Both the position numbers and the translations under genes were made by a program. A DNA stretch of 9,208 nt from a virus. Lineage: Duplodnaviria; Heunggongvirae; Uroviricota; Caudoviricetes. Shown here piece after piece: positions 2,481 to 8,836 of this stretch (positions within the stretch are counted from its first letter, which is position 1; each line of letters starts with the position of its first letter). Location of the stretch: IMG/VR virus record IMGVR_UViG_2526164634_000013, positions 1 to 9,208 of that record. The stretch is one strand, 5' to 3'. The notes beneath the pieces are model-generated. The model was not told the DNA's origin. It was given only the letters and a program-made list of their open reading frames with translations, and ran no database searches.

Positions 2481-3527
2481 GTGCGGGTATTACTTCGACC
2501 TGTTCTGGTACCGGAACTCGGGCTGGTGATCGTTAAGCCGGGCCGTGAATCCATGCCGGTATTCCACAATACCCGGGTACTGGTGGAGCCGGAACCGAAA
2601 AGCATGCGTAATCTGTCGTCCGGGGTCGTTCCTGCCGTTCGCCAGCCGCTGGCGGAGGATAAATCATTACTGCCATTTTTCAGCGACGAACGAGTGATTC
2701 GTGCTGCTGGTGGCGCTGGCGCATTGTCTGACTGGTTACTGCGCCATGTTAAATCCTGCCAGTGGCCACACGGCGATTATCACCACAGTGAAACCGTCAT
2801 TCACCGTTATGGTACCGGCGCAATGGTGTTGTGCTGGCACTGCGACAACCAGCTGCGCGACCAGACCTCCGAATCACTCGGGCAACTTGCTCACCAAAAC
2901 CTGTCTGCATGGATGATTGACGTCATACGCCATGCAATGAATGGCTCGCAGGAACGGGAATTATCGCTGGCTGAATTATCCTGGTGGGCGGTCCGCAATC
3001 AGGTGGCGGACGCGCTACCGGAAGCGGTATTACGTCGTTCGCTGGGGTTGCGTGCGGAAAAAATCCGCTCAATGTACCGTGAAAGCGACATCGTACCGGG
3101 AGAGCAGACCGCCACCAGCATACTGAAGCAGCGCACAAAAAATCTTGCGCCGCTGCCTCACGCCCACCAGCAAAACCCGCCACAGGAAGAGACGGTGGTC
3201 AGCATTGCCGTTGATCCTGAGTCTCCGGAATCTTTCATGAAACGACCTAAACGTCGCCGCTGGGTTAACGAGAAATACACACGCTGGGTGAAGACACAGC
3301 CGTGTGCGTGTTGTGGTAAGCCAGCCGACGATCCCCATCACCTGATTGGTCATGGTCAGGGCGGAATGGGGACAAAATCTCACGATATTTTCACGCTACC
3401 GCTGTGTCGGGAGCATCACAACGAGCTTCATGCGGATCCTCTGGCGTTCGAAGAAAAGTATGCTTCTCAGGTTGATTTAATTTTTCGTTTTCTTGATCAC
3501 GCCTTTGCAACTGGCGTGCTTGGGTAA
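2481..3527 (+). CDS. ydfU: DUF968 (YdfU-like) prophage protein with C-terminal Cys/His HNH-like motif
   Basis: 348-aa ORF with GTG start at 2481 and GGAGG at 2472-2476. The C-terminal segment CACCGKPADDPHHLIGHGQGG…LPLCREHHNELH resembles a zinc-binding HNH-type module. The length matches the roughly 349-aa YdfU of Qin as I recall it; the family call is by recall. Confidence 0.75.
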   Translation: MRVLLRPVLVPELGLVIVKPGRESMPVFHNTRVLVEPEPKSMRNLSSGVVPAVRQPLAEDKSLLPFFSDERVIRAAGGAGALSDWLLRHVKSCQWPHGDYHHSETVIHRYGTGAMVLCWHCDNQLRDQTSESLGQLAHQNLSAWMIDVIRHAMNGSQERELSLAELSWWAVRNQVADALPEAVLRRSLGLRAEKIRSMYRESDIVPGEQTATSILKQRTKNLAPLPHAHQQNPPQEETVVSIAVDPESPESFMKRPKRRRWVNEKYTRWVKTQPCACCGKPADDPHHLIGHGQGGMGTKSHDIFTLPLCREHHNELHADPLAFEEKYASQVDLIFRFLDHAFATGVLG

Positions 3528-3539
3528 AAGAGGTGACTG

Positions 3540-3899
3540 ATGCTCATAGATTTGGTTTTACCTTACCCGCCGACGGTGAACACTTACTGGCGACGCCGTG
3601 GCAGCACATATTTTATCTCGGAGGAGGGAAAGCGTTATCGCCGTGATGTGGCGCTTATTGTTCGCCAGCAGCAACTGAAATTAAACCTGTCCGGAAGGCC
3701 GGCAATAGAAATTATTGCAGAGCCACCGGATAAGCGCCGTCGTGACCTGGACAATATCCTGAAGGCACCACTGGATGTACTGACGCATGCGGGGCTGCTC
3801 ATAGACGACGAGCAGTTTGATGAAATTAATATTGTGCGCGGTCAGCTTGTTCCTGGTGGGCGGTTGGGGATAAAAATCACAGAACTGGAGTATGCATGA
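3540..3899 (+). CDS. rusA: RusA-family Holliday junction resolvase
   Basis: 119-aa product with PPxxNxYWRRRG…RRRDLDN…DDxQ…GGRL, matching the RusA catalytic acidic-residue pattern. SD AGAGG upstream. The stop overlaps the next start (ATGA at 3896-3899). Confidence 0.88.
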   Translation: MLIDLVLPYPPTVNTYWRRRGSTYFISEEGKRYRRDVALIVRQQQLKLNLSGRPAIEIIAEPPDKRRRDLDNILKAPLDVLTHAGLLIDDEQFDEINIVRGQLVPGGRLGIKITELEYA

Positions 3900-4585
3900 A
3901 TAACCAGTATTTACAGTTTGTTCGTGAGCAACTCATGATTGCCACCGCCGATTTGAGTGGATCAACAAAAGGGCAGCTTGAGGCCTGGCAGGAGAATGCC
4001 ATGTTTGATACAGGGCGTTACAGGCGTAAAAAAATCCGGTACCGCGATGAAGTGACTGGAAAAATGATAACGCGGGATAATCCACCAATCCCGGGAAAGC
4101 AATCGCTGGCGAAGGGGGCGTCAATTCCTCTCGTCAGTCCGGTTGAGTTTTTGACATCATCGTGGCGGCGGGCTGTTCTGTCTCTTGAAGAACATCATAA
4201 AGCCTGGTTGTTGTGGTGTTACAGCGGGAGTATTTGTTGGGAATATCAGATCGCGATAACGCAGTGGGTGTGGAATGAATTTAAAACCCGGTACGGCACC
4301 AGAAAAATTGCAGGGAAAACGCAGGAGCGCGCGAAGAAGTTGATCTGGCTGGCGGCACAGGATGTCAGAGGATGGATTACCGGGTGTGAGGTCTACCAGA
4401 GACAGGAGCTTGCCAGACTGTGTGGAGTTAAGCCTGATAACTGGAGCCATAATTATGCGAACTACTGGCGTGAGATGTGCGATATTTTTAAGAGTCTCGA
4501 TAGAGAATCTGTGATTTGCACCGTGAAAATAAGAGCGCAACAAAAAGCGACTTTTTCACGACGAGATATTGCAAAAGTCAATTAA
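3896..4585 (+). CDS. Putative late-gene antiterminator Q (long Q-like family, QuuQ/YdfT-type)
   Basis: 229-aa ORF translationally coupled to rusA, with GGAG 5 nt upstream. It is the last gene before a promoter-like AT-rich stretch and a strong terminator, which is the canonical Q position in lambdoid phages. The family is inferred mainly from synteny; I cannot confirm by motif. Confidence 0.55.
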   Translation: MNNQYLQFVREQLMIATADLSGSTKGQLEAWQENAMFDTGRYRRKKIRYRDEVTGKMITRDNPPIPGKQSLAKGASIPLVSPVEFLTSSWRRAVLSLEEHHKAWLLWCYSGSICWEYQIAITQWVWNEFKTRYGTRKIAGKTQERAKKLIWLAAQDVRGWITGCEVYQRQELARLCGVKPDNWSHNYANYWREMCDIFKSLDRESVICTVKIRAQQKATFSRRDIAKVN

Positions 4586-4644
4586 ATAGCGTACGTTTCG
4601 TATAAATCTGATATTTTGCCGATTTTGTACGCGATGGCAAAGTA

Positions 4645-4675
4645 AGAAAAAAACTGCCGTCAGGCGGTTTTTTTT
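4645..4675 (+). terminator. Strong intrinsic terminator downstream of Q (tR'-like), flanked by A-run and T-run
   Basis: AGAAAAAAA, then stem CTGCC-GTCA-GGCGG (one G-U pair), then TTTTTTTT (4668-4675). It is about 60 nt downstream of a TATAAAT box (4601-4607). Confidence 0.7.
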
Positions 4676-4797
4676 ATGCCCAAAATCGCGTCAGTACAGT
4701 AAACACGCTGGTGGTTGCGAATACGGGTCTTTCAGCTTGCTGGCTTTTTCGACAAGAGTTATTGGTATGTCACGTTAACCGGAAAAAGGAAAAAGAC

Positions 4798-4995
4798 ATG
4801 CTAAAACAGCAGGATATGACAGAAACCGCCAGAGTGGTGTTTAATGAATTAAGCGTTACCGAACCGGCGACAGTCGGGGAGATAGCGCAGAATACTTACC
4901 TTTCACGCGAACGCTGCCAGTTAATACTGACTCAGCTGGTTATGGCGGGTCTGGCAGACTATCAGTTCGGTTGTTACAGACGCCTTCCGCAGTGA
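4798..4995 (+). CDS. Small helix-turn-helix DNA-binding protein (65 aa)
   Basis: ATG at 4798 with AGGA 8-11 nt upstream. The segment ATVGEIAQNTYLSRERCQLILTQLVMAGLA has an HTH-like pattern. The track start at 4711 is an in-frame extension lacking an SD. Confidence 0.55.
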   Translation: MLKQQDMTETARVVFNELSVTEPATVGEIAQNTYLSRERCQLILTQLVMAGLADYQFGCYRRLPQ

Positions 4996-5006
4996 AGGCT
5001 TTTTTA
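4982..5006 (+). terminator. Intrinsic terminator overlapping the stop codon of the HTH gene
   Basis: Stem GCCTTC (4982-4987) / GAAGGC (4994-4999) with loop CGCAGT, followed by TTTTTTATTT. Confidence 0.6.
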
Positions 5007-5145: not shown

Positions 5146-6195
5146 ATGCTTAATACTGTAAAAATATCCAGTTGTGAGTTAATCAACGCCGACTGCCTGG
5201 AATTTATCCGGTCGTTACCCGAAAATTCTGTTGACCTGATAGTCACGGACCCGCCGTACTTTAAAGTGAAGCCTGAGGGCTGGGATAACCAGTGGAAGGG
5301 CGACGATGATTACCTGAAATGGCTGGACCAGTGTCTGGCGCAGTTCTGGCGGGTGCTGAAACCTGCCGGAAGTCTTTACCTGTTCTGTGGTCATCGCCTG
5401 GCATCTGATATCGAAATCATGATGCGTGAACGCTTCAGTGTGCTGAACCATATTATCTGGGCGAAGCCGTCCGGACGCTGGAACGGGTGCAACAAGGAAA
5501 GCCTGCGGGCGTATTTCCCCGCCACAGAGCGCATTCTGTTCGCGGAACATTATCAGGGGCCGTATCGCCCGAAAGATGCCGGGTATGAGGCGAAGGGCAG
5601 GGCACTGAAACAGCATGTGATGGCCCCGCTGATTTCTTACTTTCGTGATGCGCGCGCTGCCCTGGGGATAACGGCAAAACAGATAGTGGATGCCACAGGA
5701 AAGAAAAACATGGTGTCACACTGGTTCAGTGCCAGTCAGTGGCAGCTACCGAACGAAAGCGATTATCTGAAATTACAGTCGCTGTTTGCCCGGGTGGCAG
5801 AAGAGAAACATCAGCGGGGAGAACTGGAAAAGTCCCATTACCAACTGGTCAGCACATACAGTGAGCTGAACCGGCAGTATACGGAACTGCAGAGTGAATA
5901 TAAGCATCTGCGGCGGTATTTTGGCGTGACGGCGCAGGTGCCGTACACGGATGTGTGGACGCATAAACCGGTGCAGTACTATCCAGGGAAACATCCGTGC
6001 GAAAAACCGGCAGAAATGCTGCAGCAGATAATCAGCGCAAGTAGTCGTCCTGGTGATCTGGTTGCGGATTTTTTCATGGGGTCGGGTTCAACGGTAAAAG
6101 CGGCGATGGCACTGGGGCGTCGTGCGATTGGCGTTGAACTGGAGACCGGACGTTTTGAGCAGACAGTCAGGGAAGTTCAGGATTTAATCGTTTGA
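5146..6195 (+). CDS. Orphan DNA methyltransferase, beta class (N6-adenine/N4-cytosine family, PF01555-like)
   Basis: 349-aa product with catalytic DPPY (residues 35-38) preceding the AdoMet-binding motif HPCEKP…GDLVADFFMGSGST (residues 283-316). That motif order defines the beta class, and DPPY rather than SPPY favours N6-adenine. No obvious SD before the ATG. No restriction endonuclease ORF in the window. Confidence 0.88.
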   Translation: MLNTVKISSCELINADCLEFIRSLPENSVDLIVTDPPYFKVKPEGWDNQWKGDDDYLKWLDQCLAQFWRVLKPAGSLYLFCGHRLASDIEIMMRERFSVLNHIIWAKPSGRWNGCNKESLRAYFPATERILFAEHYQGPYRPKDAGYEAKGRALKQHVMAPLISYFRDARAALGITAKQIVDATGKKNMVSHWFSASQWQLPNESDYLKLQSLFARVAEEKHQRGELEKSHYQLVSTYSELNRQYTELQSEYKHLRRYFGVTAQVPYTDVWTHKPVQYYPGKHPCEKPAEMLQQIISASSRPGDLVADFFMGSGSTVKAAMALGRRAIGVELETGRFEQTVREVQDLIV

Positions 6196-6244: not shown

Positions 6245-6320
6245 GGCCCTTTAGCTCAGTGGTGAGAGCGAGCGACTCATAATCGCCAGGTCGCTGGTTC
6301 AAATCCAGCAAGGGCCACCA
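6245..6320 (+). tRNA. ileZ: tRNA-Ile2 (anticodon CAU, lysidine type), ileZ-like
   Basis: Hand-folded cloverleaf: acceptor GGCCCTT/AAGGGCC, D-stem GCTC/GAGC, anticodon loop CTCATAA, T-loop TTCAAAT, encoded CCA. Closely resembles E. coli tRNA-Ile2 as recalled. Confidence 0.8.
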
Positions 6321-6327
6321 TCACATA

Positions 6328-6404
6328 CCGCCATTAGCTCATCAGGAAAGAGCGCCAGCCTTCGAAGCTGGCTGCGCGGAGTTCGGGTCCCCGAAGGCGG
6401 TCCA
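6328..6404 (+). tRNA. argN: tRNA-Arg (anticodon UCG as read from sequence), argN-like; atypical stems
   Basis: Perfect anticodon stem CCAGC/GCTGG with loop CTTCGAA, D-stem GCTC/GAGC, encoded CCA. However there is one A-A mismatch in the acceptor stem, one A-C mismatch in the T-stem, and the T-loop is TTCGGGT (G at position 58). Confidence 0.55.
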
Positions 6405-6417
6405 TTATCTGTATCCT

Positions 6418-6494
6418 GCGTTGTTAGCTCAGCCGGACAGAGCAATTGCCTTCTAAGTAATCGGTCACTGGTTCGAATCCAGTACAACGCGCCA
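6418..6494 (+). tRNA. argO: tRNA-Arg (anticodon UCU), argO-like
   Basis: Acceptor GCGTTGT/ACAACGC, D-stem GCTC/GAGC, anticodon stem ATTGC/GTAAT with loop CTTCTAA, T-arm ACTGG-TTCGAAT-CCAGT, encoded CCA. Confidence 0.82.
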
Positions 6495-6533: not shown

Positions 6534-6730
6534 AAATGTCTCACAATTCAGACGGTTGACAGTTGTCTGTTTTGCGGGGAGTTTGTTAAAAGAAACTGGC
6601 ATGGTGAATCCCCCTGTGCGGAGGGGCAATCAGCGAGTAGGTATATGGGATAATCGCGGATTCAGGTGCTGGTACTGAATTCACCGGGAGGCACCCGGCA
6701 CCATGCAATGGCACATAGCGCCACTCTCCA

Positions 6731-6755
6731 GCCCCTCTCCGGAGGGGCTTTCTTA
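6731..6755 (+). terminator. GC-rich hairpin with T-rich tail (terminator-like) in the tRNA-to-esterase interval
   Basis: Stem GCCCCTC / GAGGGGC with loop TCCG, followed by TTTCTTA. Shares the core CGGAGGGGC with a second hairpin at 6611-6626. Confidence 0.4.
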
Positions 6756-6760
6756 TGGAC

Positions 6761-6982: not shown

Positions 6983-8836
6983 ATGGCATTTAAACACTAT
7001 GATGTTGTCAGGGCGGCGTCGCCGTCAGACCTTGCGGAAAAGCTGACACATAAACTGAAAGAGGGCTGGCAGCCGTTTGGTAGTCCGGTGGCCATAACCC
7101 CTTATACCCTGATGCAGGCGATTGCAGCAGAAGGTGATGTGGTCGTCAGTGGTGCAACTGAGCCGGAGTGGTACTACGTCATCGTACTGGCCGGGCAGTC
7201 CAATGCCATGGCTTACGGTGAAGGGCTTCCGCTTCCGGATTCATACGATGCGCCGGATCCGCGCATTAAACAGCTGGCGCGCCGCAGTACAGTGACGCCG
7301 GGTGGGGCTGCCTGCAGATATAACGATATTATTCCGGCCGACCACTGCCTGCATGATGTGCAGGATATGAGTACGCTGAATCATCCGAAGGCAGACCTGA
7401 GCAAAGGGCAGTACGGCTGTGTCGGCCAGGGCTTACATATTGCCAAAAAACTGCTTCCGTATATCCCGAATAACGCGGGGATCCTGCTGGTACCATGCTG
7501 TCGTGGTGGTTCGGCATTCACCCAGGGCGCGGAGGGGACATTCAGTGCGGACACGGGGGCCAGCCAGGATTCGGCACGCTGGGGTGTGGGTAAACCGTTA
7601 TATCAGGACCTGATTGCGCGCACTAAAGCTGCATTACAGAAGAACCCGAAAAATGTGTTGCTGGCGGTGTGCTGGATGCAGGGAGAGTTTGACATGAGCG
7701 CCGCCACCTACGCACAGCAACCTGCGCTGTTTACAGCCATGCTGAAGCAGTTTCGTGCTGACCTCACTGTGTTTAACGCGCAGTGTCATGGTGGCAGTGC
7801 TGCAGATGTGCCGTGGATTTGTGGTGACACGACGTATTACTGGAAAAATACATACGCTACCCAGTACGACACCGTGTACGGCGGGTATAAAAACAGGGAG
7901 AGTGAGGGCGTTTATTTTGTGCCCTTCATGACAGACGGTAACGGCGTCAATACCGCCACTAACGCACCGGCAGAAGATCCGGATATTCCGGCATCAGGAT
8001 ATTACGGTGCGGCATCGAGAACGAATGGAAACCAGGTATCATCAAACCGCCCGACACATTTCAGTTCATGGGCGCGCAGGAGCATTATTCCGGATCGTAT
8101 GGCAACCGCTATTCTGAACGCAGCCGGGCGCACCTCAGCCTTCATCAGTGGTAAGGCACCGGAAATCAAACCCTCGCCCGGCGTCGACACGCCATCGGGG
8201 CCGTCTGAAGATGCATCCGTACGCACAATCTCCCTGTTGCCGACAGCCGGAGAGGCTGCTGCGCAGGGCTGGACCATTAAGGACGGCGGAATTCAGTTGT
8301 CGGGTGGTGTATTTAAGATCGCCAAGCAGAGCAATAAAGCCTGGTCCCTGACGCGCCCGGTGGGTGACGCAGTCTCCCTGCTGACACGGGGTGGCAGACT
8401 GAGCTGTAAGTTTCGACTGTCAGGCGCACTGACCAACAACCAGTTCGGTCTGGGAATTTATCTGTATACCGATGTAGCGTTACCTGACGTCGTGGCGATG
8501 ACCGGGACTGGTAACCCGTTCCTGATGTCGTTCTTCACCCAGACCACAGACGGCAAACTGAATCTGATGCATCACAAGAAAGCAGGAAACACAAAGTTGG
8601 GCGAGTTCGGGAATTACAGTAACGACTGGCAGACGCTGGAGCTGGTGTTCACCGCCGGCCAGTGCCACGGTTACTCCGAAACTGAATGGAGTGGCTGGCC
8701 CGGCATTCCAGGTCATAAAGACAGTCTGACAGTGGGACTAAATGCACTGACGCTGACGGATATTACCAAAAATGCAACGTATGGCGTTGAGATAGAAAGT
8801 CTGGTGCTGGAGATAAATGCACCGGCATCATCATAA
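6983..8836 (+). CDS. nanS-p: Prophage sialate O-acetylesterase NanS-p-like (SGNH/SASA hydrolase with N-terminal DUF1737-like region)
   Basis: 617-aa product. The motif [16 protein letters not shown] carries the GQSN catalytic-serine signature of SASA-type esterases (NanS/YjhS family). The N-terminal [21 protein letters not shown]… resembles the short domain that heads prophage NanS-p proteins. GGGAGG SD at 6973-6978. Confidence 0.8.

Follow-up and report, generated by a model that had tools for sequence, protein, structure and literature searches.

Gp16 of the Staphylococcus phage PhiNM1 binds double-stranded DNA, and nicks and linearises supercoiled plasmids (PMC12817073, January 2026). Its nickase activity needs C181 and is enhanced by RecA, with which Gp16 interacts; additionally, Gp16 suppresses host replication, and the phage depends on it for normal DNA replication and burst (PMC12817073). 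It is the nearest experimentally characterised relative of YdfU, the DUF968 protein that is the subject of this analysis. The gene lies at positions 2481-3527 (+ strand) of a stretch of 9,208 nucleotides (nt) from the viral record IMGVR_UViG_2526164634_000013; this whole stretch, hereafter the window, covers the late-regulatory part of a lambdoid prophage of Escherichia coli. The protein is 85% identical over its full length to YdfU (b1560) of the Qin prophage of E. coli K-12, whose name we use for it. DUF968 proteins have been described as carrying a zinc-finger HNH motif and as occurring fused to Erf, Rad52 and RusA (Curtis et al., 2014; PMC4118853), and DUF968 and DUF1364 were then placed together in group 7 of the His-Me finger proteins, with YdfU and YbcO named (Jablonska et al., 2017; PMC5714182). 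The same study lists RusA, Q and an antirepressor as neighbours and proposes a role in recombination or repair like that of NinG and Ref (PMC5714182). Likewise, YbcO has been linked to Ref and to HNHc_6 (Kaur and Subramanian, 2016; PMC4999995). The HNH assignment of YdfU is correct but already known: the HNH nuclease label and the RusA and Q neighbours, whose novelty an earlier note on this DNA had implied, were published in 2014 and 2017 and are recorded in PHROG 96, and the assignment adds nothing beyond Pfam, PHROGs and the papers of 2014, 2017 and 2026.

We favour the reading, with a probability of roughly 0.55, that YdfU is a delayed-early HNH nickase or endonuclease that acts on recombination or replication intermediates alongside the Holliday-junction resolvase RusA. 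What is established here is that the protein belongs to this family, which fold and conserved residues it has, how the genes are arranged and that it is homologous to a characterised nickase; that it acts as a nuclease, on which substrate, any dependence on RecA and its cooperation with RusA are inferred.

The C-terminal HNH domain and its homology to Gp16

The gene and its parts are laid out as follows.

2481-3527, + strand: ydfU-like gene with a GTG start, encoding a DUF968 protein of 348 amino acids (aa)
2757-2852, + strand: putative N-terminal zinc module (residues 93-124; candidate ligands C93, H101, C118 and C121)
3162-3200, + strand: linker between the N-terminal region and the HNH domain (residues 228-240)
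3237-3260, + strand: conserved basic lead-in FMKRPKRRRW before the HNH core (residues 253-260)
3303-3431, + strand: HNH (His-Me finger) core (residues 275-317)

The open reading frame (ORF) 2481-3527 is a genuine gene. Residues 160-345 of its product match positions 1-171 of the Pfam DUF968 model (PF06147; E 2.9e-75; 252.5 bits, cutoff 27.8), and residues 1-347 align with positions 1-333 of the 334 in PHROG 96, labelled 'HNH endonuclease' (E 5.6e-175); the DUF968 call is not due to chance. A match to Pfam HNHc_6 (PF16784) at residues 270-319 stayed below threshold, short of membership in that family. Homologues were taken from representatives of clusters at 50% identity, the best 150 of 3087 matches at E up to 0.001 being used, and 30 of them, 25-84% identical, were aligned over their full length. 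An AlphaFold2 model was built from the full-length homologue alignment, and conservation was counted over about 80-88 representatives.

The model has a mean predicted local distance difference test (pLDDT) score of 87.7 and contains a beta-beta-alpha unit made of strands 284-287 and 305-308 and helix 310-318. The proposal of the earlier note that the C-terminal Cys/His cluster adopts an HNH or zinc nuclease-type fold is thus borne out by the model (residues 284-318). The residues that it had listed are all present, as C275-A-C277-C278, H286-H287 and C309-R-E-H312-H313-N-E-L-H317, whereas their placement within the last 60 residues was wrong; since the motif begins 74 residues from the C-terminus, the range 280-348 that had been suggested for structure prediction would miss the CxxC. 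Lack of conservation, which was to have told against the idea, was not found either, as conservation of the Cys/His residues extends across the DUF968 family.

Specifically, C275, C278, C309 and H312 are the predicted zinc ligands and would hold a structural zinc that stabilises the HNH domain formed by the last ~95 residues. C275 is found in 91% of the representatives, C278 in 78%, C309 in 87% and a His or Cys at position 312 in 77%; this position is taken as a metal ligand because the interchange of His and Cys is typical of such ligands. C278 and C309 are lost together in one subset of homologues. H287 (83/88, 94%), at the end of the first strand, is the predicted general base, and would act together with a catalytic-metal site comprising D302, called invariant (84/86, 98%), and the predicted metal-site histidines H313 (72/82, 88%) and H317 (70/80, 88%); the adjacent H286 is present in 92%. 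Many homologues carry the canonical CxxCHxxLH motif in the helix, where YdfU has C-R-E-H-H-N-E-L-H, with a His in place of the fourth Cys. The domain therefore combines the elements of a His-Me finger, i.e., a His on the first strand, H...H in the helix with a central Asp, and a CxxC...CxxC/H site. Within the basic lead-in, K257 is called invariant (77/79) and P256 is nearly so. The preceding residues 228-240 vary in length and sequence among homologues and have a pLDDT below 50, and in the model they are probably a flexible linker. Taken together, the C-terminal domain is very probably an HNH-fold nuclease domain, and nuclease activity is predicted for it.

The closest support for this prediction comes from Gp16, an HNHc_6 protein (389 bits) that also exceeds the DUF968 cutoff (29.1 vs 27.8 bits). 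YdfU and Gp16 are 41% identical over 59 aa in BLASTP (E 3e-11), and hhalign pairs them at 95.1% (E 3e-8). The core alignment sets NCVICGKPHADLAHY...LALCREHHNEQHA...FDDKY of Gp16 against PCACCGKPADDPHHL...LPLCREHHNELHA...FEEKY of YdfU. The Gp16 equivalents of the YdfU core residues are C145, C148, H157, C181, H184, H185 and H189, H157 being aligned with H287 and C181 with C309. Because this homologue cuts DNA, the question of whether DUF968 proteins are nucleases, which the earlier note had left standing, is answered at the level of the family.

More distant relatives were also recovered. The best structural neighbour of YdfU is P1 Ref (PDB 3PLW), although the match to the Pfam family RecA_dep_nuc/Ref (PF16786) stayed at E 0.1 and 13.2 bits, below the cutoff of 26.9. 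The C-terminal profile can be aligned over the entire length of YbcO (78 columns), at 84.5% in hhalign (E 7e-6) and at E 0.009 in hmmsearch, and YdfU has no match to Pfam DUF1364 (PF07102) up to E 10. Against the PDB, the full-length profile reached YbcO at no better than E 1.2, and a search with the single protein returned only chance matches to C2H2 zinc fingers, with E above 1. Comparison with lambda NinG/Rap (PF05766) gave no Pfam match, and an hhalign probability of 8% (P 0.004).

A putative zinc module in the N-terminal region

Neither Pfam nor NCBIfam has a match for residues 1-226. When 30 sequences of this region were compared with Pfam at E up to 10, only scattered chance matches and no HNH family appeared, the N-terminal profile gave nothing meaningful against the PDB, and a Foldseek search with the N-terminal region found nothing below E 2.2. 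C93 (96%) and C118 (98%) are nevertheless the most conserved cysteines of the whole protein. Position 101 is His or Cys in 91% of the representatives and position 121 is Cys or His in 98%, and with these two cysteines they make up a set of four candidate ligands, the last of which is followed by D122 (88%) and N123 (77%). In both of the AlphaFold2 models, a hairpin (105-110/113-118) and a helix (119-124), with pLDDT of 91-96, are flanked by the putative ligands, a modelled layout that resembles a treble-clef zinc finger and may be HNH-like. A conserved catalytic His is missing from the module: the residue at position 108 differs among homologues (M 24, H 14, L 8, others), and nowhere else on the hairpin is a His conserved. 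We regard it as a conserved second zinc module, a lead that is possibly degenerate HNH-like and probably non-catalytic. It is absent from the literature that we found, and it is the sole new lead of this analysis. The first ~226 residues would then form a separate globular region around this second four-ligand module, whose task is most likely the binding of DNA or of a partner protein, and not cleavage, and which would supply recognition of the substrate or partner.

A bolder version of this idea is that YdfU-type proteins are tandem, pseudo-dimeric His-Me enzymes, in which an ancient, catalytically dead N-terminal copy of the HNH/treble-clef fold reads branched or RecA-bound DNA and positions the live HNH domain, which nicks one defined strand for RusA. 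If true, this would be an undescribed HNH architecture and an undescribed two-enzyme recombination module, and the ligands of the N-terminal module are indeed more conserved than those of the active HNH copy. We consider it doubtful. An internal duplication was looked for by comparing the N-terminal and C-terminal cores with hhalign and did not reach significance (P 0.04; 8 of the 100 column-shuffled controls scored at least as well), and the N-terminal core compared with YbcO, Gp16 and NinG gave P of 0.27-0.47.

Proteins in which the N-terminal region is fused to tail-tip, tail-fibre, capsid or Q domains (P0140, P0185, P0187, P0168, P0151) were set aside as likely deletion chimeras from decaying prophages or read-through gene calls. 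The database protein P0043 is likewise among these fusions and is most likely a product of prophage deletion or read-through.

The locus and its neighbours across Enterobacterales

In the window, ydfU stands in a block that runs, on the + strand, in the order hok/sok, rem, ydfU, rusA and Q. The features outside the gene are the following.

183-1412, + strand: mosaic protein of 409 aa with a C-terminal DUF551 domain
1709-2034, + strand: complete hok/sok type I toxin-antitoxin locus
1709-1884: sok RNA of this locus (Rfam RF01794, 121 bits)
ending at 2034: mok/hok ORF of this locus (Pfam HOK_GEF)
2102-2128, + strand: intrinsic-terminator-like hairpin and T-run between hok and rem (hairpin AACCCGCTTCGGCGGGTT, tail TTGTTTTTTC)
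2201-2479, + strand: rem-like ORF, 92 aa plus stop, i.e., 93 codons (PHROG 1212, E 1.6e-35)
2472-2476, + strand: Shine-Dalgarno sequence GGAGG within the last rem codons, serving the GTG start of the DUF968 gene
3528-3539, + strand: spacer of 12 nt between the DUF968 stop and the rusA ATG, with GAGG at 3530-3533
3540-3899, + strand: rusA, Holliday-junction resolvase, 119 aa (Pfam RusA, E 9.8e-15; PHROG 34)
3896-4585, + strand: Q, late-gene antiterminator, 229 aa (Pfam Phage_antiter_Q, E 8.6e-83)
between Q and the DNA methyltransferase gene, + strand: small ORF
5146-6195, + strand: orphan N6/N4 DNA methyltransferase (Pfam N6_N4_Mtase; PADLOC MTase_II, E 3e-166)
6245-6494, + strand: three tRNAs, 'Met' CAT, Arg-TCG and Arg-TCT
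6570-6760, + strand: STnc100 small RNA (Rfam RF02076, 139 bits)
6983-8836, + strand: NanS-like sialate esterase
8881 onward, + strand: P21-type holin

The GTG start at 2481 has its GGAGG upstream, and the annotation of the prophage of enteropathogenic E. coli strain E2348/69 made by the Prokaryotic Genome Annotation Pipeline has the identical start and the identical 1-nt gap. Residues 1-24 are conserved in distant homologues, which start at the same alignment column, and the GTG is for this reason better supported than the ATG at 2553. The ORF of 93 codons that the earlier note had seen ending 1 nt before the GTG is the rem-like ORF, which related phages and genomes list either as rem or as a hypothetical protein. 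Both of the junctions it described are present: the rem TAA (2477-2479) is followed by C2480 and then by the GTG, and the rusA stop and the Q start share an ATGA, an overlap of 4 nt. The junction between the DUF968 gene and rusA is close-packed as well, with its spacer and no overlap. Such tight junctions are usual in phage operons and unremarkable by themselves, and a translational chain to rusA and Q was rejected as a trait of the family, as among the 80 loci described below rusA lies downstream in one type alone (L003) and Q belongs to four families. The ORFs inside or antisense to the gene (2333-2605, 2923-3183 and 3069-3383 on the - strand; 2701-2916 and 2941-3126 on the + strand) were treated as non-coding; they have no family support, with the single exception of one trivial PHROG match of 21 residues. 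The rusA product also matches NCBIfam PRK09786, under the cutoff of that family.

The 2102-2128 hairpin is a strong one, with a stem of 7 bp, of which 5 are GC pairs. It is probably a terminator of the nin-region type, in which case read-through would be needed to express rem, ydfU, rusA and Q. Further terminator-like sites lie at 4656-4668, just after Q, and at 4982-4999.

The 2-kb stretch around the DUF968 gene is 98.9% identical to the E2348/69 prophage, many Shiga toxin (Stx)-converting and other lambdoid phages match it too, and the region has matches in 4636 of the 5426 complete E. coli genomes. A wider view was obtained from 80 loci, one genome per species, from many genera of Enterobacterales, collected with a C-terminal alignment of 15 sequences as the query. 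The N-terminal region and the HNH domain occur together in 78 of the 80. A RusA gene lies within 4 kb and on the same strand in 53, a count for which nin regions without DUF968 supplied no baseline; it is usually upstream of the DUF968 gene, directly adjoining it in 12 loci and often overlapping it by 4 nt, and the order DUF968-rusA-Q of the window is the Escherichia-type arrangement (L003). Directly upstream of the DUF968 gene, 42 loci (L007, L010, L011 and 39 others) encode a KilA-N protein of ~263 aa. In these loci rusA, where present, stands further upstream, which gives a recurrent module RusA - KilA-N - DUF968 - Q. A Q-type antiterminator is encoded directly downstream in 73 of the 80 (PF06530 in 38, PF03589 in 20, DUF1133 in 10 and PF06323 in 5). 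Homologues of NinG, NinB and NinH were found in none of the 80 loci, and the absence of NinG within 4 kb fits a positional replacement. In the equivalent slot of DLP12, the mini-HNH gene ybcO overlaps rusA. Two traits of the locus are thus conserved: the DUF968 gene comes last in the nin region, ahead of Q, and it is frequently linked to RusA, in whichever order the genes stand.

As to the rest of the window, hok/sok lies just 5' of the rem-ydfU-rusA-Q block, as it does in K-12 Qin (hokD-rem-ydfU). The 183-1412 protein matches several unrelated PHROGs along its length and looks like a fusion of accessory modules of lambdoid early regions. No restriction enzyme is encoded near the methyltransferase gene, which stands between Q and the tRNAs; the 'Met' CAT tRNA is annotated as tRNA-Ile in the E2348/69 prophage. 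The tRNA cluster, STnc100, the NanS-like esterase and the holin together have the layout of an Stx-phage late region, and stx genes are absent from the window.

Proposed role, alternatives and described systems

In the sequence of events that we propose, antiterminated transcription after induction would express rem, ydfU, rusA and Q as a delayed-early nin-region operon. YdfU would nick or cut recombination or replication intermediates, such as D-loops and branched or RecA-bound DNA, and RusA would resolve the junctions that YdfU leaves, so that both would serve the same pathway of phage replication and recombination. This role is modelled on P1 Ref, PhiNM1 Gp16 and lambda Rap/NinG.

Several observations weigh against it. 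The RusA linkage is lacking in 27 of the 80 loci and in K-12 Qin. YdfU does not have the NinB-like N-terminal domain of Gp16, so its choice of partner or substrate may differ. A Ref-like dependence of YdfU on RecA would be an analogy and not a matter of family membership. The H157A mutant of Gp16, altered at the equivalent of H287, kept its toxicity (PMC12817073), and the textbook assignment of catalytic residues may be too simple. An intact ydfU persists in a cryptic prophage of K-12, which tolerates it; the protein is thus not grossly toxic when silent, and may be inactive there. Finally, we found no biochemical or genetic study of YdfU itself in the literature.

Gp16 alone inhibits host growth and replication and condenses the nucleoid (PMC12817073), which raises the possibility that YdfU is a weapon, i.e., a nuclease that mainly damages or stalls the DNA of the host or that of incoming phages and plasmids instead of processing recombination intermediates of its own phage. 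In the same direction, P1 Ref sensitises lysogens to ciprofloxacin (PMC4713147), and toxins and defence systems often contain HNH domains (PMC5714182). We regard this as unlikely for YdfU: no PADLOC defence model matches it, or Rem or RusA; the gene is always found in the nin slot beside recombination and antitermination genes, not at accessory 'moron' positions; and most E. coli genomes carry an intact copy silently, as the region matches in 4636 of the 5426. The idea partly overlaps with a role in phage recombination and replication, since Gp16 does both.

It is highly unlikely that the Cys/His clusters bind zinc alone and that YdfU is a DNA-binding regulator or scaffold, for instance one that assists late-gene control by Q. 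The 88-98% conservation of H287, D302, H313 and H317 would be needless for a purely structural finger, and the homologue Gp16 cleaves DNA in vitro (PMC12817073). A non-catalytic role would agree with the two conserved four-ligand zinc sites, the N-terminal one being without a catalytic His, with the annotation of an Arsenophonus homologue as 'phage transcriptional regulator' (PMC5714182) and with the stronger phenotypes of Gp16 zinc-ligand mutants compared to catalytic-His mutants (PMC12817073). The gene is also nearly always immediately upstream of Q; however, the partner Q proteins come from four unrelated families, which argues against a specific Q co-factor.

Even less probable is a selfish role as a homing HNH endonuclease, whose site-specific cut would copy the gene into phage genomes without one. 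Homing endonucleases account for many of the free-standing HNH genes of phages, and lambdoid nin regions are mosaic. Against this, the position between the KilA-N or RusA genes and Q is fixed across many genera, the two-domain architecture is kept in 78 of the 80 loci, no association with an intron or intein was seen, and the full-length sequences have diverged to as little as 25% identity, a sign that the gene has long been inherited vertically as a working part of the phage. A packaging function, as a terminase partner that cuts concatemers at cos like HK97 gp74, is scarcely credible: HNH proteins of this kind occur in many cos phages (PMC12817073), but their genes adjoin terminase and are expressed late, whereas ydfU precedes Q, is delayed-early and lies several kb before the lysis genes, and by structure and sequence it stands closest to Ref, YbcO and Gp16 rather than to gp74.

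On balance, the preferred reading of YdfU as a recombination- or replication-linked HNH enzyme bears on a common element, as YdfU-like genes are among the commonest prophage genes of E. coli and are located in Stx-type late-regulatory regions. The HNH core shared with the Gp16 nickase gives YdfU a concrete, testable function, i.e., RecA-linked nicking that boosts phage replication. Its position just upstream of Q means that such an activity could bear on prophage induction, on recombination among resident lambdoid prophages and on the mosaicism of Stx phages. The lasting value of the analysis lies in the direct link to the Gp16 nickase and in the conserved N-terminal zinc module.

Comparison with the described systems shows in which respects YdfU is set apart. 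YbcO of DLP12/phage 82 (PDB 3G27), with 96 aa, consists of the HNH domain alone, and its first zinc knuckle is C-x7-C, where that of YdfU is CxxC. P1 Ref, a RecA-dependent HNH endonuclease, is without a structured N-terminal domain, unlike YdfU. Lambda NinG/Rap, a branched-DNA endonuclease, resembles YdfU in belonging to the His-Me superfamily (group 24, PMC5714182) and in being encoded at the end of the nin region, ahead of Q, but it is of a different family, and in lambda Rap occurs without RusA, whereas DUF968 is usually found alongside it. K-12 Qin shares with the window the two-part protein and the order hokD - rem - ydfU - Q; it differs in the distance between rem and ydfU (346 nt vs 1 nt), in having a different Q after ydfU (ydfT, PF03589-type) and in having no rusA. 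Gp16 is shorter (223 aa vs 348), comes from a phage of a Gram-positive host, and has a NinB/Orf-like N-terminal domain, in place of which YdfU has a 226-residue region with the putative zinc module and no similarity to NinB. Its core is nonetheless that of YdfU, CxxCGKP...H...CREHHNExH...F(E/D)(E/D)KY, and each protein matches the Pfam model of the other, YdfU below the threshold. As in the window, the HNH gene of PhiNM1 belongs to an early operon of a phage that also carries rusA, and gp16 (4052-4723) and rusA (7706-8113), ~3 kb apart in that same operon, mirror the HNH-RusA linkage of the enterobacterial loci.

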